The translations under genes and the position numbers were made by a program. Positions 1 through 14,129 of a stretch of 64,000 nucleotides of DNA are shown piece by piece. The stretch spans positions 1-64,000 of the IMG/VR virus record IMGVR_UViG_3300048670_000735. One strand, given 5' to 3'. Position 1 is the stretch's first letter; every line of letters starts with the position of its first letter. The notes beneath the pieces are model-generated. The model was given only the letters and a program-made list of their open reading frames with translations. It was not told where the DNA came from and did no database searches. Source of the DNA: a virus (taxonomy: Duplodnaviria > Caudoviricetes).

Positions 1-76
1 CCAAGTCCATAGCCATACTAATGACAGACCTAGGTCGGTGCTGTCAAGAATCTTTAAGCATTCATTTAGTTTATCT

Positions 77-310
77 TTATCTTGTGGCTTCATATGCTAA
101 CTCCCTTTCATTCCATTCCGCTAATGTCTTGACAGTAAAGTCTTTCCCTAAATTATAACAGTAGAGCACAGCATCCGTCAAAGATTCAGTCTCATATATT
201 GGTATAGACATAGGTATATCTGTTTTATCATAGACCTCAAATGTATCTACTCCTCCAGGTGAGCAAGAGTATTCCATTTCCAGGATTTCTAGACTTGGCT
301 CGTATGACAT
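77..310 (-). CDS. hypothetical phage protein (77 aa)
   Basis: ORF track; start overlaps the upstream stop (TAATG coupling). Confidence 0.8.
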   Translation of the reverse strand: MSYEPSLEILEMEYSCSPGGVDTFEVYDKTDIPMSIPIYETESLTDAVLYCYNLGKDFTVKTLAEWNERELAYEATR

Positions 311-603
311 TATTTTTGCCCTTTCTTTAGTTCTCGGTTATATGCTTCTGCAATTGCAAATGATAAATCATATGTTAGTTGATATACTGCAGTTAAGGCG
401 TCTAGTCTTCCTTCCGCCTCTGTGCGAACCATAGAATCCATTGCTTCTTCGGTCTCTTGTTCTCTTTCGCTGGCCTCTGATAGTTCTTGTTCTGCCATTA
501 GCATTAGATTTTTTAGTTCACCGTGCATTATATCTAATCCACTAACACCTGCATTAACCATTCGTTGCAAATGGGGCGGGAGCCCAATATCTTCTGCATT
601 CAT
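310..603 (-). CDS. hypothetical protein (start moved to MNAEDIG)
   Basis: ATG at 603 overlaps the TGA of the upstream peptide gene (ATGA). Confidence 0.75.
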   Translation of the reverse strand: MNAEDIGLPPHLQRMVNAGVSGLDIMHGELKNLMLMAEQELSEASEREQETEEAMDSMVRTEAEGRLDALTAVYQLTYDLSFAIAEAYNRELKKGQK

Positions 604-761
604 CGTGATGAACACCGAAATACATTACGATAAGTCCAGCCAAGTCGTTTGTCTGATACCTTAGTCATAACATTTTTACAAGTTGTTACTCCAGCATTTG
701 CTGGGGCGGAGGTAATAGGAAGTAGTCCTAATACAACCATTGCTATAATTGCTTTTTTCAT
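600..761 (-). CDS. small predicted secreted peptide, 53 aa (MKKAIIAMVVLGLLPITSAPANAGVTTCK...FRCSSR)
   Basis: Read by hand, below ORF-track cutoff; ACGAAAGG RBS, promoter at 789-810, Sec-type signal peptide ending A-N-A, two Cys. Confidence 0.75.
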   Translation of the reverse strand: MKKAIIAMVVLGLLPITSAPANAGVTTCKNVMTKVSDKRLGWTYRNVFRCSSR

Positions 762-970
762 TATTCATACCTTTCGTTAGTAGAGTTCATTATATCAGTC
801 GCCACTGACAATAAATGGTCCATACAAGCAATTGCTCCTTGAAGATATTCTTTTGGATATCCCTCATTTGTTACCTCATGGTCCTCAATTGCTTCCATAT
901 CTTGGATTAAAGATAACTTATGTAATTTCATATATTCTATAAAATAAGATGACTTAGTCTGTGTGGTCAA
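761..970 (-). CDS. hypothetical protein
   Basis: ORF track, part of coupled minus-strand array. Confidence 0.75.
   Translation of the reverse strand: MTTQTKSSYFIEYMKLHKLSLIQDMEAIEDHEVTNEGYPKEYLQGAIACMDHLLSVATDIMNSTNERYE
789..810 (-). promoter_or_regulatory. TGTCAG-N10-TATAAT promoter (PafBC/RecA-NDp type), copy 1
   Basis: exact motif and spacing shared with 11 other copies. Confidence 0.8.
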
Positions 971-1136
971 AGTAACCCTCCGCCCATAGGCCTTGTAAGA
1001 AACTAACAGCCATTTCTAAATCATTCCTTAGTTCTGTCTTATCCATTAAATCGGACGGGGTACGAAGATAAAAAAGCTTTGCGTCATGTACAGCATTAAT
1101 CATCTTGTTTAGATCGGATTCAGTATAACCTAACAT
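954..1136 (-). CDS. hypothetical protein
   Basis: ORF track. Confidence 0.75.
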   Translation of the reverse strand: MLGYTESDLNKMINAVHDAKLFYLRTPSDLMDKTELRNDLEMAVSFLQGLWAEGYFDHTD

Positions 1137-1348
1137 AAGTAATCCTCATCTCCCTCTTTTAGTTCATAGAACTTATTAAACTCATCTTGTATGAATTTAT
1201 CTCCTGACATTTCTGCAAATTGTTTATCTGCATAATACTGGCCCTCATCTAGATTATTATTAATCCAGTCCTCTAGTAATTGTTCCGCTATATCTTGGTA
1301 GACAGCGTCAATTACCATTTGATTTACATCTTCTAAGAAACTAGCCAT
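1130..1348 (-). CDS. hypothetical acidic protein
   Basis: ORF track. Confidence 0.75.
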   Translation of the reverse strand: MASFLEDVNQMVIDAVYQDIAEQLLEDWINNNLDEGQYYADKQFAEMSGDKFIQDEFNKFYELKEGDEDYLC

Positions 1349-2132
1349 TTAGTGCCTCTTCCTGTGTGTAGGTTTTCAAAGGTAATAGTACACTATGGGT
1401 CTGACATTTTGCCATAGCCTCTTCATCCTGCCAAGAGCCATAATTACATTCTGAACAGAATTCACCGCAGTCATCTTCACAATAAGATAATGTATCAAAA
1501 GATTGGCAAGCATAGCAACGGTTCTCCCATTCAGCCAATTCTTTTACTTCACCACGGACAATCTCATATTCCCCACCCCAACCTGTTTCTTCCTCAAACT
1601 CTAATGTAAGCAGGCAGTTAGGAACAAGATTACTTAGTTTAGTTAAGATAGTTACAGCAGGTGACCAAGCAGTCTCATACTTATATACAACCCAGTTGTC
1701 ATCACCTTCTGATTTCTCTTCAAGCAATTCTGTATTTGGATATTCATCACCGTCACGGACGGCTACATCCCATTTAGTTCCCCAGTTAGATGTATTCCAC
1801 GAATACCAATCTTTTTGGGTCTTAGCAAACTCAACAGATTTGCGGAACCAATCAGGGTCATTCTGAATATCATAGTTGCCACGAGAAGGCTGGCAAGCAT
1901 ACTCTTCATCAGTAATTCCGTCATCTTTATATGAGTGGATATTATGGAAAGAAAAAACGGGATTAGAATAAGACACCTGTTCAATCTTAGTAGGAAATCC
2001 CATAGTAGAAATATCACCCATACCAAATGTCTCTTGGGCTAATGTAAAAGGCTTATTCAATCTATCTTTAATCATATCTACCTCAGACTTAGGTCCTTGG
2101 ATAGTTAATGTGTTATAACACCAATTTGGCAT
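1341..2132 (-). CDS. DUF1281/YubB-like ferredoxin-fold family protein
   Basis: MPNWC.N.L.I.G N-terminus, WY.W...NWGTKWD and TAWSP motifs typical of this family. Confidence 0.7.
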   Translation of the reverse strand: MPNWCYNTLTIQGPKSEVDMIKDRLNKPFTLAQETFGMGDISTMGFPTKIEQVSYSNPVFSFHNIHSYKDDGITDEEYACQPSRGNYDIQNDPDWFRKSVEFAKTQKDWYSWNTSNWGTKWDVAVRDGDEYPNTELLEEKSEGDDNWVVYKYETAWSPAVTILTKLSNLVPNCLLTLEFEEETGWGGEYEIVRGEVKELAEWENRCYACQSFDTLSYCEDDCGEFCSECNYGSWQDEEAMAKCQTHSVLLPLKTYTQEEALNG

Positions 2133-2159
2133 TTTATATCCTTTCGTTGATATGGCTTA

Positions 2160-2181
2160 ATTATATAATGGACCACTGACA
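2160..2181 (-). promoter_or_regulatory. TGTCAG-N10-TATAAT promoter, copy 2 (also TAGACA -35 18 bp upstream of the -10)
   Basis: motif upstream of ACGAAAGG RBS and ATG 2132. Confidence 0.85.
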
Positions 2182-2199
2182 TTTGTCTAGGCTATATCG

Positions 2200-2242
2200 T
2201 GTGATTCACACCACATTGCCCAGCTTTGTGGTCAAGATCACA
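2200..2242. promoter_or_regulatory. two CRP/GlxR-type boxes (TGTGA-N6-CCACA 2200-2215; TGTGG-N6-TCACA 2227-2242)
   Basis: one mismatch each to TGTGA-N6-TCACA. Confidence 0.65.
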
Positions 2243-2306
2243 GAATTTTCAGGGATTTTATATTGACATCGTAAACAAAATAATATACCCTCAGTCTTTT
2301 GCGGGC
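2243..2306. repeat. tripartite intergenic element copy 1 (AATTTTCAGGG-N14-TCGTAA-N25-TGCGGGC)
   Basis: five copies with conserved blocks and spacing. Confidence 0.8.
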
Positions 2307-2334
2307 AAACAAAAAACCCCAGCTTGCGCTGAGG
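2307..2334 (-). terminator. rho-independent terminator
   Basis: CCTCAGC-GCAA-GCTGGGG followed by TTTTTTGTTT on the minus strand. Confidence 0.8.
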
Positions 2335-2483
2335 CTTATGTTTTAGGTGTACACCAAACTTAATATATGAATATGGCTGCTGATTTCCAACGAAAGAAAT
2401 AAACCGCTTTACTTAGCGCCTGGCCCGCAGACTAGTTAGACGCACCACTTCATTTCTGTATTAAAACCAGGACCAAGGTCCTT
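2307..2483 (-). ncRNA. candidate ~175-nt structured small RNA
   Basis: TGGTATAAT extended -10 at 2490-2498, no substantial ORF, several stems, ends in an intrinsic terminator. Confidence 0.45.
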
Positions 2484-2490
2484 AGACTAA

Positions 2491-2859
2491 TTATACCATA
2501 CTCAGTTGAGTAGAATATTTGTCGACAAACGACTCTAGGCTTAGACTAAATACCTCGGTCTGCAGGTCTTCTTGCATTAGAGTAAACGTTTTGTTTTTCC
2601 AATCGATAATAGGTACCTTGTGCTCGTTGTCTGCTAACTCATTAACTGTAATGCCCCAACCTGTTTCGCTGGACCACTCATCCGCAATTAAATTAGATAT
2701 ACATATACGTGTTGCATATGCTTCGTCATTCCATCGAGGCTTTGCTGTAAGAACACAGTCTGCTAAATTCTCTAGCATTCTGTGGCCTGCCCAATGACCG
2801 TATAGAAATACAACATTCTCATTGGATTGTCTAAATCCAAAGTTTGCTCTGTCTCCCAT
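2491..2859 (-). CDS. conserved hypothetical phage protein (MGDRAN...LYGHWAG)
   Basis: ORF track; RBS upstream. Confidence 0.8.
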   Translation of the reverse strand: MGDRANFGFRQSNENVVFLYGHWAGHRMLENLADCVLTAKPRWNDEAYATRICISNLIADEWSSETGWGITVNELADNEHKVPIIDWKNKTFTLMQEDLQTEVFSLSLESFVDKYSTQLSMV

Positions 2860-2860
2860 T

Positions 2861-3049
2861 TTATTCCGCCTTCGTTAGTTGTTGCTGCTCGTAGTTGAGC
2901 AATTGTACCATTTCTTGGGCCCAGTCCACAAGAGACTCGCCCTGTTCATTTTTATGATGTCCGCAGAAGTAAAGAGACATTTCGTATTTCTTTGCTTCCC
3001 ACATAGCTTGCGCTGCACATTGGTCACACTTAAGCCATTCAGCCATCAT
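2861..3049 (-). CDS. small zinc-binding protein (CxxC...CxHH)
   Basis: CDQC and FCGHH motifs. Confidence 0.7.
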   Translation of the reverse strand: MMAEWLKCDQCAAQAMWEAKKYEMSLYFCGHHKNEQGESLVDWAQEMVQLLNYEQQQLTKAE

Positions 3050-3189
3050 AGGTTTCCACCTTCAATCATTTCAGAAAGACGATCAAGGATCCAAGAATCA
3101 ATGTCAGCGATATCAATCTCTGCTAACTTATCCATAATTTCTTCACGAGCAAACTTATACCCGTCTTGAAACCCGTCTTTGTAATCCAT
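3046..3189 (-). CDS. hypothetical protein, 47 aa (MDYKDGFQDGYKFAREE...)
   Basis: read by hand; coupled on both sides, AGGAGA RBS. Confidence 0.7.
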   Translation of the reverse strand: MDYKDGFQDGYKFAREEIMDKLAEIDIADIDSWILDRLSEMIEGGNL

Positions 3190-3401
3190 TATTTCTCCTT
3201 GTATCCTGTCGCTTCTCTGTCTGACCAGTAAGATTCTTTTAAATTATACTTGTCACGAATACGACTAACTTTCTCAATACTACCAGTTCCAATGTTGAAA
3301 GTCAACGGCCCGCATTGTTCAGGGTCTAGCCCTGTGATTTCTGCATCCCAATAGGCTCTCTCCATTGAGAGCCTATCAGGAGCGGTTAACTCAAAGTACA
3401 T
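3189..3401 (-). CDS. hypothetical protein
   Basis: ORF track, TAATG coupling. Confidence 0.75.
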   Translation of the reverse strand: MYFELTAPDRLSMERAYWDAEITGLDPEQCGPLTFNIGTGSIEKVSRIRDKYNLKESYWSDREATGYKEK

Positions 3402-4030
3402 TAGTTCTCACGCACATTACATACTTCTTGGTCATTGATTTCAATGTTACCGTTCTGTGAATCAGCAAAGAGAGCATCTGTAATTTCTGACTCAAGGTCC
3501 ATATCATAATCATTTTCAAGAATGTTGAAAGAATATGTTCCGCTAACTTCAATAGATGCAGACCATTCAACTTCTTTGATAAGTTCAATACCAAGCGCCT
3601 CAGCAATTTCACGTAAGGTATCTTGGTCTTGTGAGTCTGCATATGCCTCGCAGATAATTTCTTTAGCCGCATCAATCTTAGATGAATACATATTTGCTTG
3701 CTTCTGTGATTGACGTCCATTGTGTAGAGACCATTCAATGCTAGCAACTTTATCTGTTTCATAAGTTGCATCTGAATAGCCGTGGATAACCTTATATGTT
3801 ACTAATAGGTTAGCGTTGTAAGACTCAGGGACTGTTACTGTAGGTGTTGTTGTCTCTTCCATTTGTTCCTCTTTCGTTTGGTTAGGGGTTGATTCTACCA
3901 CACTGGTCTGACACCATACAACTGCTGGGTCTGAACAATTACAGGACGGGTCCTGAAAATGTATCCCCTTAGATACGATCTCAATAGATGCATCACAAGA
4001 TGTACATACATACCAATATGATTTGAACAT
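3401..4030 (-). CDS. hypothetical protein; leaderless long form from 4030 (N-terminal CxxC/CxC) and shorter form from 3862
   Basis: the ORF-track start at 4192 lies inside tRNA-Asp; ATG 4030 is 6 nt after a -10; ATG 3862 has its own promoter and RBS. Confidence 0.7.
   Translation of the reverse strand: MFKSYWYVCTSCDASIEIVSKGIHFQDPSCNCSDPAVVWCQTSVVESTPNQTKEEQMEETTTPTVTVPESYNANLLVTYKVIHGYSDATYETDKVASIEWSLHNGRQSQKQANMYSSKIDAAKEIICEAYADSQDQDTLREIAEALGIELIKEVEWSASIEVSGTYSFNILENDYDMDLESEITDALFADSQNGNIEINDQEVCNVREN
3892..3913 (-). promoter_or_regulatory. TGTCAG-N10-TAGAAT promoter, copy 3 (intragenic)
   Basis: exact motif. Confidence 0.75.
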
Positions 4031-4036
4031 GTCGCT

Positions 4037-4058
4037 ATTATAGCGGGTCCCACTGACA
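4037..4058 (-). promoter_or_regulatory. TGTCAG-N10-TATAAT promoter, copy 4 (leaderless)
   Basis: exact motif, ATG 6 nt downstream. Confidence 0.85.
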
Positions 4059-4066
4059 TTTACAAG

Positions 4067-4127
4067 AATTTTCAGGGATTTTTTTTGTGATTCGTAACAC
4101 AAAAATTTTGCCTTTACCTTTGCGGGC
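4067..4127. repeat. tripartite element copy 2, overlapping a CRP-like box (4086-4101)
   Basis: AATTTTCAGGG-N14-TCGTAA-N23-TGCGGGC. Confidence 0.8.
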
Positions 4128-4133
4128 GCTTTG

Positions 4134-4207
4134 CGATCTGTAACGGACTTGAACCGTCGACCTCTACCGTGACAGGGTAGCGCTCTAACCAACTGAGCTA
4201 ACAGACC
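4134..4207 (-). tRNA. trnD: tRNA-Asp (GTC)
   Basis: GGTCTGT/ACAGATC acceptor stem, AGCTCAGTTGGTTAGAGC D-arm, CTACC-CTGTCAC-GGTAG anticodon arm, GGTTCAAGTCC T-arm; no encoded CCA. Confidence 0.95.
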
Positions 4208-4213
4208 AAATGG

Positions 4214-4242
4214 TGAGCAGTTTTAAATCTTGCTCAGGATTT
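4214..4242 (-). ncRNA. small H-type pseudoknot motif, copy 1
   Basis: AAATC-CTGAGCAA-GATTT-AAAAC-TGCTCA; covaries with the copy at 5739-5765. Confidence 0.5.
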
Positions 4243-4249
4243 TTTTTAA

Positions 4250-5254
4250 TTAAAACGCAGAAACTAATTTCTTAATTTTATTTTTTTCTGCTGTAAGAAC
4301 TGGGTCAAACCCTGATGCGCCAGCCATAAGAGTTTCGCCATTGCCACGCCCTGAACGATAATAATCTAAACGCTCAGTTAGTGCATTGAACGCACCCCAC
4401 TTTGTGCCTTTGATATTAGCGTTAGTTGGTGAATTATGATAAAGGTCATCAAGAAGAACGACTTTGTTTTCCCACTTCTTGATTGCGCCCTTAGCATCTT
4501 TTTCAGGCTTAGGATAGATTGTCTGAATCAACTTAGAGAATTCAGCATCGGTGATTGATTGAGAATAAAGCGCTTTCGCTTCTGCTTCAAATTCATCAAA
4601 GTAACCAAGCGCAAGACCAAGAGTCTCACGAGCAACAGCGATGCGACCTTCAACAGATTGCGTGTGGCGAATTTTGAATGATTGCTTTGCATTACGCATT
4701 GCAAGGTTCAAAGTGTTTTGGCATACAACACGAACAGGAGTAACAGCAGCCTGAACAGCAACTGAACCATCGTGTGATGTCCATACGATTAGATATAACT
4801 TTGTCGCATCATTAGCGCCTTGTGGGTCAAGAACCATTGTGCGAGGAATATCAACAGTGCCGAATACAACTTTGCCCTTCTTAAGAGAACCAGCAGATTC
4901 CCAACGGCACTCAGGATTTGCATCGTGAATTGCATCAGCAAATGCGAATAATTCTTCATTCTGCACTGGCTTGTAACGCTTTCCAACAGTTGCAAGAACA
5001 TCTGTGCCCTTGTTGAATGGGTTATCACGAATGACAAGAGATGCGGTAGAAACATCATTCCAAGATTCTGGAATGTGCTCAGTGATTGGAGATAAACGAA
5101 CATTCCAATTTGCCAACTTTGCTTCTTCAAGCATTGATTGTGTAGTTACTTCTTCATCTTGTGTGAAGATGCGATTTGCTAGGTTGTGCCAAGCAGGTGC
5201 GCCACGAAGAGCGAAAGCAACTTCGCCATTTTCCATTTCTAGATTGTGAGCCAT
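4250..5254 (-). CDS. DUF932 / TIGR03299-type phage/plasmid protein
   Basis: MAH..E, AWH.L, Y.PVQN.E.F, SAGSL..G, SHDGS, TPVRVVCQNTL, IRHT, GT.WGAFNA motifs. Confidence 0.85.
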   Translation of the reverse strand: MAHNLEMENGEVAFALRGAPAWHNLANRIFTQDEEVTTQSMLEEAKLANWNVRLSPITEHIPESWNDVSTASLVIRDNPFNKGTDVLATVGKRYKPVQNEELFAFADAIHDANPECRWESAGSLKKGKVVFGTVDIPRTMVLDPQGANDATKLYLIVWTSHDGSVAVQAAVTPVRVVCQNTLNLAMRNAKQSFKIRHTQSVEGRIAVARETLGLALGYFDEFEAEAKALYSQSITDAEFSKLIQTIYPKPEKDAKGAIKKWENKVVLLDDLYHNSPTNANIKGTKWGAFNALTERLDYYRSGRGNGETLMAGASGFDPVLTAEKNKIKKLVSAF

Positions 5255-5287
5255 ATATTTATTACCTTTCGTTTGATTGTTGATGCA

Positions 5288-5309
5288 AGTATAACAGGGG
5301 GCACTGACA
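5288..5309 (-). promoter_or_regulatory. TGTCAG-N10-TATACT promoter, copy 5
   Basis: exact motif. Confidence 0.85.
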
Positions 5310-5347
5310 TTGTCTAGATTAGTTAGTCATTTGTCCGAATTGATCCG

Positions 5348-5363
5348 TGTGATTAATCTCACA
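5348..5363. promoter_or_regulatory. CRP/GlxR box, perfect (TGTGA-ttaatc-TCACA)
   Basis: consensus match. Confidence 0.75.
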
Positions 5364-5424
5364 AAATTTCAGGGTTATCCACAACTAGTCGTAAACCTGT
5401 GGAAAACCCCTTACATGTGCGGGC
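5364..5424. repeat. tripartite element copy 3 containing two DnaA boxes (TTATCCACA 5375-5383; TGTGGAAAA 5398-5406)
   Basis: conserved blocks and spacing; matches to TTWTNCACA. Confidence 0.8.
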
Positions 5425-5481
5425 TTCCCGCACCACCAACTGGAGCTAGCAGCGCTAACCCCAGTTGATCGATGCGATTAC

Positions 5482-5703
5482 TTATGAATTTATTTTTGCA
5501 ACAGTGTCTTCATTTAAAAACATTGCTGTTGTTTTCTTTTTCTTTTGCATATCAAAAACGTAAGCATTTACTTTTCCACTAAAGCGGCGGATGTTAGAAA
5601 ATACTAACTCAGTTAGGTGCTCTTTATCTACACCTTGCTCTGAATAAATAGTTACATCATTTAATTTGTTTGCGTCATAGATTTCAACTCTAAAGCGAGC
5701 CAT
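5482..5703 (-). CDS. hypothetical protein
   Basis: ORF track; AAAGG RBS. Confidence 0.8.
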   Translation of the reverse strand: MARFRVEIYDANKLNDVTIYSEQGVDKEHLTELVFSNIRRFSGKVNAYVFDMQKKKKTTAMFLNEDTVAKINS

Positions 5704-5738
5704 TGTATTACCTTTGTTAGTAGTTGTCCCCGAAGGGA

Positions 5739-5765
5739 GAGCAGTTTGGCGACATACTCAGGTCG
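5739..5765 (-). ncRNA. small H-type pseudoknot motif, copy 2
   Basis: CGAC-CTGAGTAT-GTCG-CCAAAC-TGCTC, followed by a UUCG hairpin. Confidence 0.5.
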
Positions 5766-5774
5766 TTTATTTAT

Positions 5775-6191
5775 TTAGAGATACTTAGCAATTTGCTTCA
5801 TTGTAGAAGCATTTACTGTTTCCTCATCTGTCATCTTGAGAATTGTGAGAGCATTTGAGATGTCCTCTTTCATTTCACGATAACTGTGCTGATGGATAAC
5901 CTCAAAATCTTTTTGAGGTTCAGCAGGGAAAGTTCCCTCTTTTGTGATGATGTCAAAATCAACATTGAGAGTGTTGTTCCAAGAGCGATAGTTTGTGCGA
6001 AGGTTCTCAGCCTTTGAGAAATTAGCAATAGCCCACTTGCCAATTTCCTTTTTCCACGCTTCTACCGCTTTGGTGTGCTTTGCTTCTTTTGCTTCTTGTG
6101 TTGCGTAGTTAGTTTCTAACTCAGCAAGACGAGCCTCTAGTGCCTTGATTACCTTTGGTGTTGCCACCTTTACTGTAATTGCTCTGCTCAT
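5775..6191 (-). CDS. hypothetical protein
   Basis: ORF track; ACGAAAGG RBS. Confidence 0.85.
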   Translation of the reverse strand: MSRAITVKVATPKVIKALEARLAELETNYATQEAKEAKHTKAVEAWKKEIGKWAIANFSKAENLRTNYRSWNNTLNVDFDIITKEGTFPAEPQKDFEVIHQHSYREMKEDISNALTILKMTDEETVNASTMKQIAKYL

Positions 6192-6229
6192 TTTGTATTA
6201 CCTTTCGTTGGTTGGTTGTTGTTGTGAAT

Positions 6230-6251
6230 AGTATAGCAGGGGGGTCTGACA
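6230..6251 (-). promoter_or_regulatory. TGTCAG-N10-TATACT promoter, copy 6 (TGTCAG forms the loop of a 10-bp inverted repeat 6236-6261)
   Basis: exact motif. Confidence 0.85.
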
Positions 6252-6268
6252 ACCCCCCTGCCACCGCC

Positions 6269-6445
6269 TTATACTAGGCTTGCGTTGCTAACTGTTGTCC
6301 AACGAGTTTCTTTCGTTGGCATTTCTAGTAGCACTCTCACCGAGCCAGATGAGTTAGGAATAATCTCTTTGATTACGCCTGTCTTTTTTGACTTTAGGGT
6401 GGTGAATAAATCACCGACCTTGTAAGTGTATCCATTTACTGTCAT
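6269..6445 (-). CDS. small SH3/KOW-like beta protein (start moved to MTVNG)
   Basis: GAAAGGA RBS before ATG 6445; the ORF-track start lies within the promoter; fold guessed from YKVGD...TGVI pattern. Confidence 0.7.
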   Translation of the reverse strand: MTVNGYTYKVGDLFTTLKSKKTGVIKEIIPNSSGSVRVLLEMPTKETRWTTVSNASLV

Positions 6446-6471
6446 TTTGCTTCCTTTCTGTTTAGGGTTGT

Positions 6472-6493
6472 ATTTTAGCATTGGGGTCTGACA
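6472..6493 (-). promoter_or_regulatory. TGTCAG-N10-TAAAAT promoter, copy 7
   Basis: exact motif. Confidence 0.85.
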
Positions 6494-6531
6494 TTTGTCT
6501 AGCCCTATCTCAGTATTTGAGAATGTTATTG

Positions 6532-6547
6532 TGTGACCTTAGTCACA
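6532..6547. promoter_or_regulatory. CRP/GlxR box, perfect (TGTGA-ccttag-TCACA)
   Basis: consensus match. Confidence 0.75.
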
Positions 6548-6805
6548 CTCAGGTAGCCACGCTTCCAAGTGGTGAGCATCAACTATTGCAGACGCAGGGC
6601 AGGAAGTCTGTCCTCGCCAAGTGATACCTTCAGGTAAATTGATCTCACGGCTGTATTCCTCATCATAGAATGCATCAATAGCATCTATGCAAGGTTGCAC
6701 CATTGATACGGGAACGGGTGGGTAATGATTACCCTGTAAGTGATAAGCAAGTCCTGCCTCTAGTGATAGTTCATCTGCAAGTCCTAGTGCTGTTGTGTAT
6801 CCCAT
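6539..6805 (-). CDS. conserved hypothetical phage protein (HL.GNHYPPVP...HHL.AW)
   Basis: ORF track. Confidence 0.8.
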   Translation of the reverse strand: MGYTTALGLADELSLEAGLAYHLQGNHYPPVPVSMVQPCIDAIDAFYDEEYSREINLPEGITWRGQTSCPASAIVDAHHLEAWLPECD

Positions 6806-7011
6806 TATGCCACCACCTTTAGAATTGCGTATGAACCGCCTGCATTAATTTCATCTATTGCAGGCTGAATTGCAGGCATTACTAATTCTTTTAGCATTCC
6901 TTCTAGCATAGTAATTTGCGCTTCTGTATCTAGTGCAAGAAAACGCTGTGCGATTGGATGTGTTTCGTCAAACTCTGTTACGAATTTGAGAAAGTGTTCT
7001 ACTTGTGTCAT
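6805..7011 (-). CDS. hypothetical protein
   Basis: ORF track; ACGAAAGG RBS. Confidence 0.8.
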   Translation of the reverse strand: MTQVEHFLKFVTEFDETHPIAQRFLALDTEAQITMLEGMLKELVMPAIQPAIDEINAGGSYAILKVVA

Positions 7012-7040
7012 TTGTAGCCTTTCGTTGTTGGTATGAGAGT

Positions 7041-7062
7041 ATTATAGCGTGCTCCACTGACA
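7041..7062 (-). promoter_or_regulatory. TGTCAG-N10-TATAAT promoter, copy 8
   Basis: exact motif. Confidence 0.85.
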
Positions 7063-7095
7063 TTACCTAATCCATACTCGGCGTGTCGCAGCTTT

Positions 7096-7111
7096 TGTGA
7101 GATTAATCACA
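7096..7111. promoter_or_regulatory. CRP/GlxR box, perfect (TGTGA-gattaa-TCACA)
   Basis: consensus match. Confidence 0.75.
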
Positions 7112-7172
7112 AAATTTCAGGGGTTGTGGATAAACCTCGTAAGCCTGTGGATAAACCCTCACCTATGCGGGC
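7112..7172. repeat. tripartite element copy 4 containing two perfect DnaA boxes (TGTGGATAA 7125-7133 and 7146-7154)
   Basis: conserved blocks and spacing. Confidence 0.8.
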
Positions 7173-7190
7173 GAGCTGCATATTTATGCG

Positions 7191-7322
7191 TTACTCTGCA
7201 TTTTTATTTTTGTGTTTGATCTTTCGTGTGTATTTTTTTTTATTGCGAACAGGTTGCGCCGCATTACTGCGACGCAATTCCTGAATGCGTTTTACTTTAT
7301 CTTGAAGTGAAGTTAGGAACAT
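7191..7322 (-). CDS. 43-aa very basic peptide (MFLTSLQDKVKRIQELRRSNAAQPVRNKKKYTRKIKHKNKNAE)
   Basis: read by hand; overlaps the end of the upstream gene. Confidence 0.6.
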   Translation of the reverse strand: MFLTSLQDKVKRIQELRRSNAAQPVRNKKKYTRKIKHKNKNAE

Positions 7323-7488
7323 TATACCCACTTGCTTCGTGAAATCGTGTTACATCAAATCGCTCATTATCTTTCGCAAACATTTCAGCGAAATCATTTA
7401 CGACTTTAGAAAAAACAGCGGGGTGAATTTTATTGCTCGCATACTTTAGAATTTCTGCCGTTGCGATGTAATCTTTTCTAGTCATCAT
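7297..7488 (-). CDS. hypothetical phage protein (MTRKDY...DN.RFD..RF family)
   Basis: ORF track. Confidence 0.8.
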   Translation of the reverse strand: MMTRKDYIATAEILKYASNKIHPAVFSKVVNDFAEMFAKDNERFDVTRFHEASGYNVPNFTSR

Positions 7489-7691
7489 TTTACTACGACC
7501 CTTCTGCCTTCACGATAAAATAATTTCGTGTAGCATTTTCCGCTAGGTGTGTAAAGATTTACGGTTGAGTATTCATCAGCAAATCCCCAGTCAATGAATT
7601 TAGCAAACTCGGTGTGTGCTTCTAATTCATCTGAGTATTCTTTTATAAAGTGTAGCGGTTCGCTATCATTAGCAACAGTTATTTTATACAT
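7485..7691 (-). CDS. hypothetical protein
   Basis: ORF track, coupled. Confidence 0.75.
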   Translation of the reverse strand: MYKITVANDSEPLHFIKEYSDELEAHTEFAKFIDWGFADEYSTVNLYTPSGKCYTKLFYREGRRVVVK

Positions 7692-7849
7692 TAGTTATTT
7701 TCTCCATTCAAAAATAGTGAGCCGTCATCTACGCAAGAGCAAGGCTCTACATCATAATTTCTTTCGTCTCCAAAGAATATAAATCCTGCGCCACCGCATT
7801 CATCACATTCCGCAGAAATAATTTCTAGGTATCGTTTTACATTAGCCAT
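7691..7849 (-). CDS. 52-aa zinc-finger-like peptide (CDECGGAG...CSC)
   Basis: read by hand; ACGAAAGGG RBS, own promoter at 7882-7903. Confidence 0.7.
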   Translation of the reverse strand: MANVKRYLEIISAECDECGGAGFIFFGDERNYDVEPCSCVDDGSLFLNGENN

Positions 7850-7967
7850 TTAGGTTTTCCCTTTCGTTTGTTTGAGTTGTAATTGTAGCAGATAGGACTG
7901 ACAAGGCTTGCGCCTTGCTTGCTTCACGTTGTGCAATCACGTGCTTTTTGAATTCTTCTAGGTTCAT
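7842..7967 (-). CDS. 41-aa hypothetical peptide (MNLEEFKKHV...)
   Basis: read by hand; AAGGAG RBS, ATGA coupling. Confidence 0.6.
   Translation of the reverse strand: MNLEEFKKHVIAQREASKAQALSVLSATITTQTNERENLNG
7882..7903 (-). promoter_or_regulatory. TGTCAG-N10-TACAAT promoter, copy 9
   Basis: exact motif. Confidence 0.8.
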
Positions 7968-8089
7968 TCAAACGCTCCTTCTTCTAGTAGTCCTAATTCG
8001 ATGTTGAATAATTCATCGGGAGTGGCTTCGGATAAATCTACCCAGCCAGCACCCTCGTTGTCCATTCGGAAAATTTCGATGTATCCCAT
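7964..8089 (-). CDS. 41-aa acidic peptide (MGYIEIFRMDNEGAGWVD...)
   Basis: read by hand; fills the gap between coupled genes. Confidence 0.65.
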   Translation of the reverse strand: MGYIEIFRMDNEGAGWVDLSEATPDELFNIELGLLEEGAFE

Positions 8090-8091
8090 TA

Positions 8092-8298
8092 TTATTCACC
8101 AACCTTTACTGCGATTGTTGCGAATTTATTTCGCAAGCCACCCGCATTTATTTCGATTAGGTAGGCTTCAGTTTTTTCGCCATACCAAATTTCTGGGCGG
8201 TGTTCCGCTGAAATAATCTCACCTGAAAAGTGGCGAGAGTTTGAGCGATAAGTTTTTCCTACAAGTAGGTTTTCGATTGTGTATAGTTTGGTAGCCAT
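8092..8298 (-). CDS. hypothetical protein
   Basis: ORF track; RBS. Confidence 0.8.
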   Translation of the reverse strand: MATKLYTIENLLVGKTYRSNSRHFSGEIISAEHRPEIWYGEKTEAYLIEINAGGLRNKFATIAVKVGE

Positions 8299-8334
8299 TG
8301 GCAGACCTTCTTTCGTTTGTTGGTTATAGTGGAT

Positions 8335-8356
8335 ATTATAGCGGATAGGACTGACA
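8335..8356 (-). promoter_or_regulatory. TGTCAG-N10-TATAAT promoter, copy 10
   Basis: exact motif. Confidence 0.85.
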
Positions 8357-8404
8357 AAGTGTTAATTCTGCAAGGGTTTGTCTCAATATGTGGAGCGTGG
8401 GTTA

Positions 8405-8443
8405 TGTGATAAGCGTCACACGGGCTATGTGATAAATCTCACA
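8405..8443. promoter_or_regulatory. two perfect CRP/GlxR boxes (8405-8420, 8428-8443)
   Basis: TGTGA-taagcg-TCACA; TGTGA-taaatc-TCACA. Confidence 0.75.
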
Positions 8444-8504
8444 AAATTCACGGGATTTTATAACTCTTTCGTAACGACACGCCCGACCCCGTGCCTATGC
8501 GGGC
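8444..8504. repeat. tripartite element copy 5 (AAATTCACGGG-N14-TCGTAA-N23-TGCGGGC)
   Basis: conserved blocks and spacing. Confidence 0.75.
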
Positions 8505-8536
8505 CAGCTTGACATTGTCAAGCCGACACGCCGTGT

Positions 8537-8635
8537 TTATTTAATTTTTTCTAGAATCTTTTCTAATTCTTTTAGTTGTTCTAGATTTAGGTGATCTAGT
8601 TGAATTGCTTTTTCAAATCCGAATAAATCGCTCAT
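8537..8635 (-). CDS. 32-aa peptide (MSDLFGFEKAIQLDHL...)
   Basis: read by hand; TAATG coupling. Confidence 0.65.
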   Translation of the reverse strand: MSDLFGFEKAIQLDHLNLEQLKELEKILEKIK

Positions 8636-8745
8636 TAGTTTAACCCGTTTTCTTTTAGGTCTTTTATTACGGCGATTAGTAGCGGGATAGTTACGCCCGC
8701 TAGTAGTAATTGGACGGCGGTAGTAAGTAGGCGATTAGTAGTCAT
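8635..8745 (-). CDS. 36-aa membrane peptide (MTTNRLLTTAVQLLLAGVTIPLLIAVIK...)
   Basis: read by hand; TAATG coupling; hydrophobic helix. Confidence 0.65.
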   Translation of the reverse strand: MTTNRLLTTAVQLLLAGVTIPLLIAVIKDLKENGLN

Positions 8746-8900
8746 TACTTATTCTTCTTTCTTTTATAAATCTTATAAGCGATTAGTGCTAGGGCGGTGA
8801 TAATAATAGTGTGCCAAGGTAGATAGATAGACCCTAAGAAACTATCTAACTCAAATCCGTATTCGCTTGTTATGTATAAATCAAATCCGTTAGGTATCAT
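8745..8900 (-). CDS. 51-aa membrane peptide with basic C-tail
   Basis: read by hand; TAATG coupling; ...WHTIIITALALIAYKIYKRKKNK. Confidence 0.65.
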   Translation of the reverse strand: MIPNGFDLYITSEYGFELDSFLGSIYLPWHTIIITALALIAYKIYKRKKNK

Positions 8901-9085
8901 TACGCCACCCATTCCATATCTGCTAATAGTGCATCTACTTGCTCATCTGTTAGGTCTGTATCCTCTAACTCTTCTTCATCTTGCTCTACCTCTTCATCTA
9001 GGTAGGCGTATTGGTCTGCGACATCTTCTTGGATAGTTTCCCATTTAGATACGCTGTTAGTGCGTGTGTTGTATGCGTATGACAT
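8900..9085 (-). CDS. very acidic 61-aa protein
   Basis: ORF track. Confidence 0.75.
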   Translation of the reverse strand: MSYAYNTRTNSVSKWETIQEDVADQYAYLDEEVEQDEEELEDTDLTDEQVDALLADMEWVA

Positions 9086-9237
9086 TAGTTCTGTTCTACC
9101 TTTCTCATATGGGCTACTACGCCCTTAGAAACCTTTTGTAGGTCTGCCACTACCTTATTCATTTCATCTGCTGATGAAGCCTTGAAATCAACGCCTAGTA
9201 GTTGAGCGCCGTCCCATAGTGAGTATGTGATTGTCAT
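9085..9237 (-). CDS. hypothetical protein (start moved to MTITYSL)
   Basis: GAAAAGGA RBS before ATG 9237. Confidence 0.7.
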   Translation of the reverse strand: MTITYSLWDGAQLLGVDFKASSADEMNKVVADLQKVSKGVVAHMRKVEQN

Positions 9238-9276
9238 TTTATTTTCTATCCTTTTCGTTAGTTGGTTATTTGGTTG

Positions 9277-9330
9277 AGAGCGATTATTTGCTAGGCTCAC
9301 CTTTCGGATTATTTGCTAGGCTCACGCTCT
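9277..9330 (-). repeat. 19-bp direct repeat pair (9282-9300, 9307-9325) enclosed by an inverted repeat; candidate symmetric 5'-UTR RNA
   Basis: GATTATTTGCTAGGCTCAC x2, flanked by AGAGCG/CGCTCT. Confidence 0.7.
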
Positions 9331-9357
9331 AATTCTTTATTTAATTTGTATGTCGTA

Positions 9358-9379
9358 AGACTATCACGACCTACTGACA
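9358..9379 (-). promoter_or_regulatory. TGTCAG-N10-TAGTCT promoter, copy 11
   Basis: exact motif. Confidence 0.75.
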
Positions 9380-9407
9380 TTTAGCCTCATTTAGGGCTAG
9401 TGTCGTG

Positions 9408-9423
9408 TGTGAGTTACCTCACA
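9408..9423. promoter_or_regulatory. CRP/GlxR box, perfect (TGTGA-gttacc-TCACA)
   Basis: consensus match. Confidence 0.75.
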
Positions 9424-9581
9424 CCTACTAGGTTATGCTCGGCGTAGTTACCGCCACACATTACGCATAGGGAGTATGCGGTTACTCTACCGCAACCTGC
9501 TGAGCAGGATACATAGCCAAGACGCTTAGCGTCTGACTCTACTAGGTAGTCATTACGACTTTCCCAAATTCTGTTAGTCAT
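9414..9581 (-). CDS. 55-aa Cys4 zinc-finger-like peptide (CSAGC...CVMC)
   Basis: read by hand; GAAAGG RBS, promoter at 9632-9653. Confidence 0.7.
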   Translation of the reverse strand: MTNRIWESRNDYLVESDAKRLGYVSCSAGCGRVTAYSLCVMCGGNYAEHNLVGVR

Positions 9582-9631
9582 TTTAGACCTAACCTTTCTT
9601 AGTAAGACTTTCTTACTTTCTTTATACCTTA

Positions 9632-9653
9632 ATCATAGCAAGGGGGGCTGACA
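9632..9653 (-). promoter_or_regulatory. TGTCAG-N10-TATGAT promoter, copy 12
   Basis: exact motif. Confidence 0.8.
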
Positions 9654-9701
9654 TTTATACCCCTATTCTCGGGCGTGTCTAAATAAATCTTAGAATAATC
9701 G

Positions 9702-9717
9702 TGTGATCTCCACCACA
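9702..9717. promoter_or_regulatory. CRP/GlxR-type box (TGTGA-tctcca-CCACA)
   Basis: one mismatch. Confidence 0.6.
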
Positions 9718-9852
9718 ATCACGCTCATTATGGGCGGTCTATCCATTTTGTCCGATTTTGATTTATATGTGTATCGTGCAAATTAAAAATTTATTAACAT
9801 TTTTTAAAATCTGAACTGCTGGTCAACTAAAAATAAATGGTAAAATTATAAT

Positions 9853-10374
9853 ATGAAAAATTATTTAACTGAGGATAACCGTGTTTGGGAAATAGAAAAT
9901 TTTCTTTCTGAAGAAGAGCTATTGAAATTTGATGACCATATAAAGCAAACAGAATGGGTTACTCAGGAAAGATGGACAAACCCTACGTATTTTAATAACA
10001 CCTCTGTGTTTCCAGATATTAAGTTTATAGAAAATAGGGCTAACAAATTAACTGATCACAAATATATATGGAGTGGTTTTGGTATTATAATGCGAATCCA
10101 ACCTGGCATGAAACTAAACCCACATGTTGATAACTACAATAGGCCAAATTTTATAAAACATGATTGTCTTTCAGCTACCATTTATTTAAACGATGATTTT
10201 GAAGGTGGAGAGCTTTACTATTTAAATCTAAATATTAAATATAAACCCAAGCGTGGCTCCATAGTTTTTCATCCAGGATTTGAAGATCTTTACATGCATG
10301 GTGTGAAAGAAGTTATTGGTTCAAGCAGACACGCATTAGGATTAGTTGGAATAAGCTTGACACCGAAAATATAA
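9853..10374 (+). CDS. 2OG-Fe(II) oxygenase (prolyl 4-hydroxylase-like)
   Basis: HVD...IYLNDDFEGGEL...HGV...R facial triad; leaderless (TAAAAT 6 nt before ATG). Confidence 0.9.
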   Translation: MKNYLTEDNRVWEIENFLSEEELLKFDDHIKQTEWVTQERWTNPTYFNNTSVFPDIKFIENRANKLTDHKYIWSGFGIIMRIQPGMKLNPHVDNYNRPNFIKHDCLSATIYLNDDFEGGELYYLNLNIKYKPKRGSIVFHPGFEDLYMHGVKEVIGSSRHALGLVGISLTPKI

Positions 10375-10489
10375 ATAGTATAATTTTATAGGGGGGTCGG
10401 GGGGTCAGTAAATCAATAATATTTAAATATATTATATATAAGACCTAAGACCTAAGATCAAGTGATACTTGGAATGGTACAATAAAAGT

Positions 10490-11770
10490 ATGAAAACTGT
10501 ACACCTTATTGGTGATTGTCATTCAACTAGAATCTGGGAACACTGGAATCCTGAAACATGTCCCGTAGACTTTAAAGTATGGGGTGTAGCTGGAATGACA
10601 GCTTACGCATTTGATCCAGTAAAATTTGAAGAAGAAAAATATGAATCAAGCGGCATAGAAAGCCAAAGCGACTACCTTGATATGCCAAGAGAATACTGGG
10701 TAAAACCATTCAATGAATTTAAATCCCCAGACCTGGTACTAGTTTGGCTAGGATATGTCGATATTAGACAATGGCTTCCAAAGCATAAGAATACTGAAGA
10801 GGTTGTTATAAAGTGTCTTGATCGTATACGTGAGTATTATAAGGATTCTGTTATACAGCTTATTGAACCCCTCCCACAATTCACTGAAATGCTTTTAAAG
10901 TACGAGGGCATATCTCCAAGCTACACATACGATGAAAGACAAAGCATCAACAAAATTTTTATAGACACTCTAAATAAATATGTTATTCAGCATAGAATGC
11001 CTTCTCCAATTACCCAAGATGACATTAAAAAAGCAGTTGGACTTAAAGAGTTTACACCTGAAGATTGTGCAACATGGGCACCTCATCCACAAGATTCACT
11101 AAAAAGAGAATATTGGGCAAAAATTTATAATTTGTTTATGGAAAAGTCTTTAAAATCATTCTTTAGGATAATTTCACCAGCTGGCTCTGGAAACACATTT
11201 GCTATAAATTTATTGAGAGAGTATGTTAAAGACTCCGAGCATGTTAATAGCTATCATGACTATGATTTTTTTGATAACAAAATGCACAATGTAGCTTTGT
11301 TAAGAAACCCGTATGATTCAATTGCATCTAGTGTAGAGCTTAGCCTTGAATTTATTGATAAAAATCAAATTAAATATAACTTAAAAAATGCCTTAGAAAC
11401 AAGAATTGAAAAATCAATAAAAGATTACGAATGGTTTTTAAACACATTAAATAAAGAAAAAAATTCATACATTATGATATATTCATTTGATTCTTTAACA
11501 AAAGATCCAGAAGAATTTTTAATTAAATTTTCTAATACGTTTAATTTAAATTTAAAAAAATTTAATAAAGAATTATTATCAAAAACCATTTTACAAAAAA
11601 TGAAAAATCTTGAAATTGAATCAGTTAGAACTCCAAGAGATATAAGTAAAATGAGGTCCATTATAAACAAGGCTGTTTTATATAGCGAGCCCATGAAAGA
11701 CTTATTTGCTAAATATCAAAAACAATTAGAAAGGGAGAACATAAATGGTAATGCAAGAGCCTCAATTTGA
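10490..11770 (+). CDS. fusion: SGNH/GDSL-like N-domain plus sulfotransferase-like P-loop domain
   Basis: LIGDCHS...LGYVD N-half; SPAGSGNTF and LLRNPYDSIAS C-half; leaderless start at 10490. Confidence 0.6.
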   Translation: MKTVHLIGDCHSTRIWEHWNPETCPVDFKVWGVAGMTAYAFDPVKFEEEKYESSGIESQSDYLDMPREYWVKPFNEFKSPDLVLVWLGYVDIRQWLPKHKNTEEVVIKCLDRIREYYKDSVIQLIEPLPQFTEMLLKYEGISPSYTYDERQSINKIFIDTLNKYVIQHRMPSPITQDDIKKAVGLKEFTPEDCATWAPHPQDSLKREYWAKIYNLFMEKSLKSFFRIISPAGSGNTFAINLLREYVKDSEHVNSYHDYDFFDNKMHNVALLRNPYDSIASSVELSLEFIDKNQIKYNLKNALETRIEKSIKDYEWFLNTLNKEKNSYIMIYSFDSLTKDPEEFLIKFSNTFNLNLKKFNKELLSKTILQKMKNLEIESVRTPRDISKMRSIINKAVLYSEPMKDLFAKYQKQLERENINGNARASI

Positions 11771-12398
11771 TGAGACAGTAGGAAAAACTATTAAGGTAAT
11801 AGCACCTATGGGTTCTGGATGCGTTTTATTTTCTAAACTTTTGCTTCATGTTTGTGACGACATTAGCATAACGTCTGGGCAGGGCATAAAAGACGAATGG
11901 TTTGGCAATAATTGGCCAGAAATGATGGATCAAGAAGATCCTTTTGTTTATATATTAAGAGATCCAGTAGATTCAGTAACTCAAAATGTAAAAATTTTTA
12001 TGAAGTTTAAAGAAGGATATGACAAGCTATTTCAAGAAGAAGATCATCTACAAACTTCAATTTCTATTGCATTAGGAAAATATGAAATGCTTTTTACTAA
12101 ATCAAAAGAAAAAGAAAATATTTTTAAAATTACCTATGAGTCAATGTTTACAAATCCAAACCAAACTATTAAGAATTTTGTAAACTTTTTTAATTTGGAG
12201 CTAAATGATAAATATTCTGACTCTATTACAATAAAAGATATTTATCCAAAAATAGCAGGAACACATCTTTCATTTTGGATACCAGACAATCACACCTCTG
12301 CATTTACTGAAATTGAAGATAAAGTTCGTAACAACGAAGCAGTAAAAGAAATGCAAAAAAAATATTTTGAGTACAAAAAGGAGATAGAGGCTTGCTAA
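11745..12398 (+). CDS. sulfotransferase-like P-loop protein
   Basis: APMGSGC, YILRDPVDSV, ITYE...NP motifs. Confidence 0.6.
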   Translation: MVMQEPQFDETVGKTIKVIAPMGSGCVLFSKLLLHVCDDISITSGQGIKDEWFGNNWPEMMDQEDPFVYILRDPVDSVTQNVKIFMKFKEGYDKLFQEEDHLQTSISIALGKYEMLFTKSKEKENIFKITYESMFTNPNQTIKNFVNFFNLELNDKYSDSITIKDIYPKIAGTHLSFWIPDNHTSAFTEIEDKVRNNEAVKEMQKKYFEYKKEIEAC

Positions 12399-12982
12399 TT
12401 ATAAACTCTAGTCCTGGATCAGGAAATACTTATTGCAGTGTACTATTGGAAGAAACTTTGGGCTATTGGGTTGAAGTATTTCATCGTCCAGATGCGTTAA
12501 ACGAAAAAAGAAATCAAATTACTTTGTTTAAAAACCCATACGATTCAATATTATCTGCTTTAGAAAAACATTTTCAAGACGTACACCCATCTCTTCAGCC
12601 ATTTGATATAAACAATGAAGATGAGGTCAGACATAATATAAAAAACTACGTTAGGCTTTACAACATATATCTTGATGACTATAAAAAAGATCATATTTAT
12701 CCTGTAACCTATGAATATTTAAGAAATGACCCAATTGATTTTGTTACATCTGTTGCAAACTTTTTTAATTTAGAAATAGCTAATAAAAACATTAGTGAAG
12801 CTAAGGTTTTACAAATAATTGACGAAAAGCGTCTTCGTTTAGAACATATAAGAAAAAGATTAATTCCTGTAAAAGAAAAAGAATCTTTAAAAAAATTTTT
12901 AACATCAAATGATTCTTTAAAACAAGTTTACGAAAGATATAATGAGCATAAGGAATTTTTTATAAATGTCAATACTAATTAA
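12392..12982 (+). CDS. sulfotransferase-like P-loop protein
   Basis: SPGSGNTY, FKNPYDSILS, VTYE.L..DP motifs. Confidence 0.6.
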   Translation: MLIINSSPGSGNTYCSVLLEETLGYWVEVFHRPDALNEKRNQITLFKNPYDSILSALEKHFQDVHPSLQPFDINNEDEVRHNIKNYVRLYNIYLDDYKKDHIYPVTYEYLRNDPIDFVTSVANFFNLEIANKNISEAKVLQIIDEKRLRLEHIRKRLIPVKEKESLKKFLTSNDSLKQVYERYNEHKEFFINVNTN

Positions 12983-13985: not shown

Positions 13986-14129
13986 ATGAAGAAGTTATGG
14001 GCAGGAATAAGTGGCATTGCGATAGCAATCCTTTCAGGAGTTGCATTGTCTAAATTTTTAAAATGGGCGGGACAAGAAGAAATCTTTGATTTCGACCTAG
14101 ATGAAGATATAGATAATGAAAACTTCTAA
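13986..14129 (+). CDS. 47-aa membrane peptide with acidic tail
   Basis: read by hand; AGGA RBS. Confidence 0.6.
   Translation: MKKLWAGISGIAIAILSGVALSKFLKWAGQEEIFDFDLDEDIDNENF

Follow-up and report, generated by a model that had tools for sequence, protein, structure and literature searches.

Predicted promoters with PafBC-type architecture before a one-strand block of small genes in a freshwater actinophage

In PMC8635444, the in vivo consensus of promoters activated by PafBC is given as tGTCgg(N10)tA(N3)T, without a -35 element. PafB is described there as contacting the -26 element at positions -23 to -28, with two arginines reading both guanines of the GTC triplet, and PafBC as inserting between sigma region 4 and the DNA. 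This mode of activation is called sigma adaptation and is compared with phage factors (PMC8635444). Here we describe an array of putative promoters of the same build in IMGVR_UViG_3300048670_000735, a 75,153-bp virus record of IMG/VR with 36.7% G+C that CheckV rates as 65% complete. The first 64 kb of this record make up the window. A first-pass annotation of the window had proposed that a set of early promoters follows the PafBC rule TGTCRG-N10-TAnnnT. The rule was correctly quoted, in agreement with the consensus in PMC8635444, and a rescan of the window returned each of the twelve site coordinates exactly.

TGTCAG-N10-TAnnnT was found 13 times in the window, on the minus strand only, between positions 789 and 9653. 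Dinucleotide shuffles of the window contained 0.70 copies on average and 3 at most, and none of 100 shuffles reached 13. The reported single orientation was borne out by all 13 sites. So was the reported absence before structural genes, as the window scan gave zero copies from 9654 to 64,000. The hexamer TGTCAG alone was not enriched in the window (30 observed, 30.5 expected); minus-strand copies within the first 9.7 kb made up 14 of the 30, and a -10 at N10 accompanied 13 of these 14. The gap variants N9 and N11 gave 0 copies each in the whole record. The observed array is real and strongly non-random. What the first-pass annotation overlooked was the site at 1385-1406, the TGn extended -10 of most sites and a series of phased CRP-like boxes upstream. 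A TGTCGG at 17967, AT-rich and within a gene, was set aside as a chance match.

Outside the window, the plus strand carried a 14th copy of the motif (73477-73498), where the primase gene of the replication module ends. This lone site precedes an open reading frame (ORF) of 223 aa without a Pfam match, and a lone site of this type was seen in three of six genomes examined (this record; G001 at 93318; G003 at 14037). We regard the 13 sites, together with the copy at 73477, as genuine promoters serving a block of small genes on one strand, with an activity predicted from sequence.

The anatomy of the sites was determined across close relatives. With the DUF932 protein (4250-5254) as query, 329 IMG/VR relatives were obtained, and 80 loci at 91-98% identity were kept; five relative contigs (112-120 kb) were complete by CheckV. 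In the 80 loci (1.34 Mb), the gene strand carried 1105 sites and the opposite strand 3, and the reversed control gave 14. The gap was N10 in 1105 sites, N9 in 5 and N11 in 3. Each of the five complete relatives had one single-strand array of 14-19 sites within approximately 9-12 kb. In 790 unique contexts, which carry TGTCAG by construction of the search, the -35 region (-37 to -32) held less than 0.15 bit, i.e. there was no conserved -35. The box-bearing promoters do not show the TTGACA-like hexamer, 16-18 nucleotides (nt) before the -10, of canonical sigma-A promoters; 4 of the 13 window sites happen to show TAGACA or TTGTAA at 17-18 nt. Positions -31 to -29 were A/T-rich. Directly behind the box, -22 was T or A in 741 of the 790 contexts and G once, and -21 and -20 were G or C. 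An extended -10 was common, with T at -15 in 530 and G at -14 in 627 contexts, ahead of TAtAAT, and A was favoured 7 nt past the -10 (429 contexts). The favoured A and the leaderless ATG at site 4037 lend indirect support to a putative transcription start about 7 nt past the -10. The gene strand had 1688 extended -10 sites in all; TGTCAG occupied -28 to -23 in 725 of them and the next most frequent hexamer in 49. The commonest one-letter variant at these sites was TGTCGG (28), the mycobacterial form, followed by TGTCAC (5) and TGTCAT (4).

Ten CRP-like palindromes (TGTGA-N6-TCACA, at most one mismatch) were located in the window between 2200 and 9717, each upstream of a promoter, where 2.86 were expected. 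In the related loci, at least one such palindrome accompanied 488 of 796 promoter contexts. The centres of the boxes in the 80 loci peaked at -54.5 (39), -64.5 (87), -74.5 (118) and -84.5 (62). This is the helical phasing expected for the site of a putative upstream activator of the CRP family. We also considered the box read on the reverse strand (CTGACA) as the -35 of divergent plus-strand promoters; no conserved -10 was present 17 nt beyond, and a single CTGACA/-10 divergent pair was found, at 6246. Strings resembling TGTCAG or TGTCAA at the start of the phage whiB gene lay inside the coding start and were dismissed as chance.

On the host side, 61 genomes of a class-level sample of Actinomycetes were searched for RecA and the 30 best loci analysed; genomes G039, G022, G031 and G014 figure in this RecA search only. 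In 25 of the 30 loci, TGTC[AG]G-N10-TAnnnT stood on the same strand as recA and no more than 700 nt from the RecA domain, mostly about 80-135 nt upstream; the reversed control gave 0 of 30. Three of the 30 loci (G037, G050, G043) come from genomes flagged unpublished, and the count without them is 22 of 27. Position 5 of the box was G in 21 and A in 4 of the 25 host sites. The genomes concerned have approximately 48-75% G+C, and 22 of the 25 sites have T or A at -22. The letters behind the box were TGG (7), TGC (4), AGG (3) and ACC (3) at host recA, and TGG (4), ACC (4) and TCC (2) at the 14 phage sites of the record. In two of three small genomes examined (1.4-1.7 Mb, 48-56% G+C at the recA locus), a leaderless gene for a RadA-type protein, with a Zn-ribbon, a KaiC/RecA-like ATPase and a Lon_C domain, began 6 nt after a TGTCAG-type promoter. 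The radA gene is a member of the mycobacterial PafBC regulon. Separately, a weak second RecA-type match was noted on contig C2 of an Aquiluna bin.

Two adjacent WYL genes were found in all five actinobacterial genomes tested, taken as being of candidate host type. In a 1.49-Mb genome of 48% GC, the pair matched the solved structures of PafB (7p5x_AY, E 6e-38) and PafC (7p5x_AX, E 4e-23). The PafB-type member of this pair also matched the first half of 6sj9 and the PafC-type member the second half. The RMFERDK stretch, with both arginines, was kept in this PafB. Taken as candidate promoters, the phage sites have the architecture of PafBC promoters.

The phage was placed by its structural proteins. 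Its portal is 57-58% and its major capsid protein 54-59% identical to those of Streptomyces cluster-BE phages such as BillNye, Mildred21 and StarPlatinum, and Streptomyces phages made up 127 of 304 matching records for the portal and 127 of 229 for the capsid. BillNye (Stanwilliamsviridae) has the same gene order, i.e. transglycosylase (minus strand), ribonucleotide reductase, portal, protease and capsid. A WhiB-family protein was detected in all five complete relatives (E ~1e-12), and among 14 control genomes this family rose above the cut-off in Corynebacterium only. Because of the similarity to Streptomyces phages and the WhiB proteins of the complete relatives, the host is very probably a lake actinobacterium. 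The phage is taken to be of the Stanwilliamsviridae kind, an actinophage of fresh water that is lytic in type, abundant and uncultured. A near-identity search of its first 12 kb against cultured phages gave no match. When the WhiB protein was used as a query against genomes, 10 loci were obtained, six of them in non-actinobacterial bins (Bacteroidia, Arenimonas, Chitinophagaceae, Saccharibacteria), which suggests that phage contigs have been binned into non-actinobacterial genome bins. One of the 10 loci, contig G008:C1, was examined as a phage relative.

The cultured Streptomyces phage Riptide has a homologous block with a DUF932 homologue 52% identical to that of the lake phage. It comprises 20 small one-strand genes with gaps of approximately 100 nt in the first 9.6 kb, and DUF932 matches lie at both ends of the Riptide record. 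Unlike in the lake phage, the Riptide block (L285 1-10000, minus strand) uses TAGACT as its -10, with 14 copies on the gene strand and 0 on the opposite strand. Hexamers resembling a -35 (at most 2 mismatches to TTGACA) accompany 8 of these 14 promoters, and just 3 of the 14 have TGTC at -28 to -25 (TGTCCT, TGTCCC, TGTCGC), which may be a remnant or a weak form of the box. The homologous block thus appears with ordinary predicted promoters in the soil relatives and with the PafBC-type box in the lake lineage. Since it is homologous to the Riptide block, which is terminal in the Riptide record, the small-gene block of the lake phage is probably early. In another cultured phage, Dropshot of Microbacterium (L291), two TGTCGGTG-N8-TAnnnT sites were noted on the gene strand (22785 and 28294, plus strand), preceding a RecE-like exonuclease gene and an SSB gene; the reversed control gave 0.

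The motif was also followed beyond the close relatives. A scan of IMG/VR with TGTCRGTGG-N7-TATAAT returned at least 120 loci, and the counts given here cover the 120 loci listed. Among them the general motif occurred 772 times, 763 times on the locus-dominant strand, with 6 in the control, and 88 loci had at least three sites on one strand. Box position 5 was A in 598 and G in 174 sites. Some of the listed loci were dominated by G (L170, 8 of 8; L187, 13 of 15; L252, 8 of 9) and others were mixed. L219 shares 0 of 35 ORFs with the lake lineage and yet has an 11-site one-strand array, and L237 shares 2 of 61 ORFs and yet has a 16-site one-strand array. G008:C1, an 85-kb contig of 42% G+C from a metagenome-assembled genome labelled 'Bifidobacterium', is a distant relative whose DUF932 protein is 52% identical; it has eight sites, seven of which are TGTCGG, and also carries WhiB. 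More distant lake phages use TGTCGG, alone or alongside TGTCAG. Because one-strand arrays persist in loci with nearly no genes in common, the box appears to outlive the genes it serves, which fits a conserved reader.

On balance we lean, if only slightly, towards the view that host sigma-A RNA polymerase and host PafBC read the phage box. As in the mechanism solved for mycobacteria, host RNA polymerase carrying sigma A, the housekeeping factor, would bind the -10. The host PafBC heterodimer, bound to single-stranded DNA (ssDNA), would insert between sigma region 4 and the DNA and recognize the GTC triplet within the box. Any appearance of ssDNA in the cell, be it through processing of the incoming DNA, phage replication or prior damage, would then boost the block. 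The TGn extended -10 would probably give a basal level without PafBC, and the phased CRP-like sites upstream would add a second input. That the promoters are active, that the block is early, that PafBC binds and that ssDNA is the trigger are in this account all deduced from the letters of the genomes.

Several points weigh against this account. Prior activation of PafBC by ssDNA would be an odd requirement for immediate-early genes, and PafBC is known here only from genomes of candidate host type. A TGn before a strong -10 may alone suffice for sigma A; TGn promoters function without a -35 in mycobacteria. TGn is missing at the host recA sites, where the fifth box letter is mostly G (21 of 25), whereas the phage sites of the record have A in 14 of 14. 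Among the closest cultured relatives, BillNye and Stigma had 0 sites each, and the first 16 kb of Riptide had 0 TGTCRG-N10 sites. Grayson, Franzy and KayaCho also had 0 sites each. The available RNA contigs cannot reveal transcript starts. Finally, WhiB proteins are present in all complete relatives and belong to a family known to bind sigma region 4, so that a phage adaptor is conceivable.

Since the record is only 65% complete, a phage-made reader was sought in the five complete relatives as well. In the 75-kb record, WYL and WhiB gave no match. WYL, Sigma70_r2, MotA and AsiA were found in none of the five complete relatives, the last two searched as PF09114 and PF09010 at E <= 1. The first-pass annotation had offered, as an alternative, a phage-encoded WYL regulator outside the window; with no WYL match at E <= 1 in any of the five complete relatives (112-120 kb), this alternative is unsupported. 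Its PafBC interpretation was otherwise supported in part, by the box, the gap, the missing -35, the actinobacterial affinity of the phage, the layout at recA and the presence of PafB and PafC orthologues in small low-GC actinobacterial genomes. The phage seems to have two promoter classes, because canonical TTGACA-N16-18-TAnnnT candidates stand before other genes (10357 on the plus, 18566 on the minus, 35035 on the plus and 68925 on the plus strand). At 10357-10384 (plus strand) a perfect TTGACA-16-TATAAT precedes ORF 10469-11770 and is followed by a G-rich direct repeat, GGGGGGTCGGGGGGTC.

A factor made by the phage or delivered with the virion might instead read the box and define a phage-timed (middle) class resembling that of T4 MotA/AsiA, and a WhiB protein on sigma region 4 is the candidate; we judge this unlikely. 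WhiB-family proteins do bind sigma region 4. WhiB was found in all five complete relatives and stands on G008:C1 together with its eight mostly TGTCGG sites, and the canonical promoters elsewhere could serve a first wave in which the factor is made. PMC8635444 itself sets sigma adaptation beside phage factors. However, the box, the gap and the letters behind the box (T or A, then two of G or C) equal those of the host recA and radA promoters, so that such a factor would have to copy the specificity exactly. MotA, AsiA, WYL and sigma region 2 are missing from the five complete genomes, and the proteins of the block, mostly small and acidic, include no clear DNA binder. We know of no WhiB protein that reads such a box.

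It is also conceivable, although improbable, that the extended -10 alone drives transcription and that the box acts negatively or as a decoy, as an operator half-site for a shut-off repressor or as a sponge whose 14-17 boxes per genome copy would divert PafBC from the damage and defence regulon of the host. Repressors commonly act between -35 and -10, where the box lies; most sites have TGn and a near-consensus -10, and the 14-19 boxes of a complete genome are packed within approximately 9-12 kb. The exact 10-nt register (1105 sites against 5 and 3) is, however, what an activator touching sigma needs and not what a sponge needs, and it is kept in host promoters that lack TGn. We give practically no credence to a chance or compositional pattern without function. 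TGTCAG alone is indeed not enriched in the window, but none of 100 shuffles reached 13, the strand ratio in the relatives is 1105 to 3, and conservation of the motif extends to loci whose flanking genes are not conserved. Returning to the reading by host PafBC, we tentatively add an extension that is itself doubtful. In the lake lineage the host PafBC box might have replaced the ancestral -35s of a host-takeover block, and the array might act as an ssDNA-timed switch, as a sponge for PafBC and sigma A and as a receiver of phased, cAMP-type CRP input. The switch would fire once incoming or replicating phage DNA activates PafBC. As a sponge, the 14-19 boxes per genome copy would pull PafBC and sigma-A polymerase off the host damage and defence regulon.

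The gene block itself extends from 77 to 9581 on the minus strand and consists of approximately 28 small, mostly acidic ORFs and a tRNA-Asp (4133-4207), served by the 13 putative promoters. Among its products Pfam names only DUF932 and a DUF1281_C-like domain. At 11 of the 13 sites an element resembling a ribosome-binding site (RBS; GAAAGG, AAAGG or GAGG) and an ATG follow within 26-50 nt. All positions below are on the minus strand. The first predicted promoter of the block (9632-9653) lies before ORF 9414-9581, and the next (9358-9379), with a leader of about 115 nt that contains two direct repeats, before ORF 9085-9237. The promoter at 8335-8356 precedes ORF 8092-8298, that at 7882-7903 precedes ORFs 7691-7849, 7485-7691 and 7297-7488, and that at 7041-7062 precedes ORFs 6805-7011 and 6539-6805. 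Further on, candidate promoters stand at 6472-6493 before ORF 6269-6445, at 6230-6251 before ORF 5775-6191, with the box in the loop of a G/C hairpin, and at 5288-5309 before the DUF932 gene (4250-5254). Two more belong to ORF 3401-4030 (4037-4058 and 3892-3913). The remaining ones were found at 2160-2181 before ORF 1341-2132 (DUF1281_C-like), at 1385-1406 before ORF 1130-1348 and at 789-810 before ORF 600-761. The site at 1385-1406, with TACTAT as its -10, is inside the 3' end of ORF 1341-2132, and the ATG of ORF 1130-1348 follows 36 nt on.

ORF 3401-4030 thus has two promoters of the class, one at 4037 and an internal one at 3892. At the former the layout is leaderless, with the ATG (4030) 6 nt past the -10, and the Met of this ATG is where homologues of 207-209 aa start. 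The site at 4037 is predicted to yield a leaderless full-length form with an N-terminal Zn-ribbon. The site at 3892 precedes an internal RBS and ATG at 3862 (Met57) and would yield a short form without the Zn-ribbon. The protein is very acidic and has 2904 database relatives. It has a weak Sigma70_r4 match (E 0.012) but, with its Zn-ribbon, acidic C-terminal domain and isoelectric point of 4.1, was not taken for a DNA reader.

At the 6230 site (6225-6262), a perfect hairpin rich in G/C, CAGGGGGGT ... ACCCCCCTG, holds TGTCAG in its loop; this hairpin may be the terminator of the preceding gene, overlapping the promoter. The leader after promoter 9358 (9260-9335) carries two direct repeats of approximately 15 nt, GAGCCTAGCAAATAA, in a short inverted repeat, and the repeat words recur after the first promoter of the distant contig G008:C1 (L104 ~2930-2990). 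Genes for a protein of the tryptophan-halogenase family (E 1e-102), for two sulfotransferase-like proteins and for a 2OG-Fe(II) oxygenase were noted beside the promoter block, on the plus strand of the window (14544-16040, 11745-12982 and 9853-10374).

Parts of the stretch were contained in 24 sequencing runs, 21 of which are on record as RNA. Four lake metatranscriptome runs covered 28-29 of the 30 bins of positions 1-10500. The bin 9801-10150 was uncovered in all four and the bin 10151-10500 almost so, and the uncovered part is not evidence. The RNA runs consist of contigs from libraries that possibly contain DNA, and neither the starts nor the strand nor the level of transcripts can be read from them.

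To date, sigma adaptation by PafBC belongs to the DNA-damage response of hosts. In a very abundant group of lake phages, nearly every promoter of one block appears to stand under the PafBC box. If so, a virus would employ the host ssDNA alarm as its own switch, and the timing of phage genes would be linked with DNA ends or with replication. The sigma appropriation of T4 would then have a natural counterpart that needs no phage-made adaptor. The motif could also serve as an inexpensive marker by which actinobacterial hosts are recognized in metagenome sequences, and the array supplies testable promoters for PafBC biochemistry. A literature search at title level found no report of phage promoters of the PafBC type. 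A 2025 paper in ACS Infect Dis reportedly deals with PafBC and mycobacteriophage resistance.

Compared with the middle promoters of T4, which combine a MotA box at -30 with AsiA, the lake phage has a similar layout, in that a box lying between -35 and -10 replaces the -35 and the host -10 is retained. The two differ in the sequence and register of the box, and the five complete lake relatives have no homologue of T4 MotA or AsiA; the box of the lake phage is that of a host regulon. The mycobacterial and other actinobacterial PafBC promoters share with the lake phage a box at -28 to -23 that starts with TGTC and ends in G, tolerance of A or G at position 5, T or A and then G or C behind the box, a gap of exactly 10 nt to TAnnnT and a -35 that is not conserved. 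In contrast to these host promoters, the putative promoters of the lake phage belong to a lytic-type phage, number 14-19 per genome and serve small genes of unknown function and not repair genes. They mostly have a TGn extended -10 with a near-consensus TATAAT, and 488 of 796 phage contexts add a phased CRP-like palindrome upstream.

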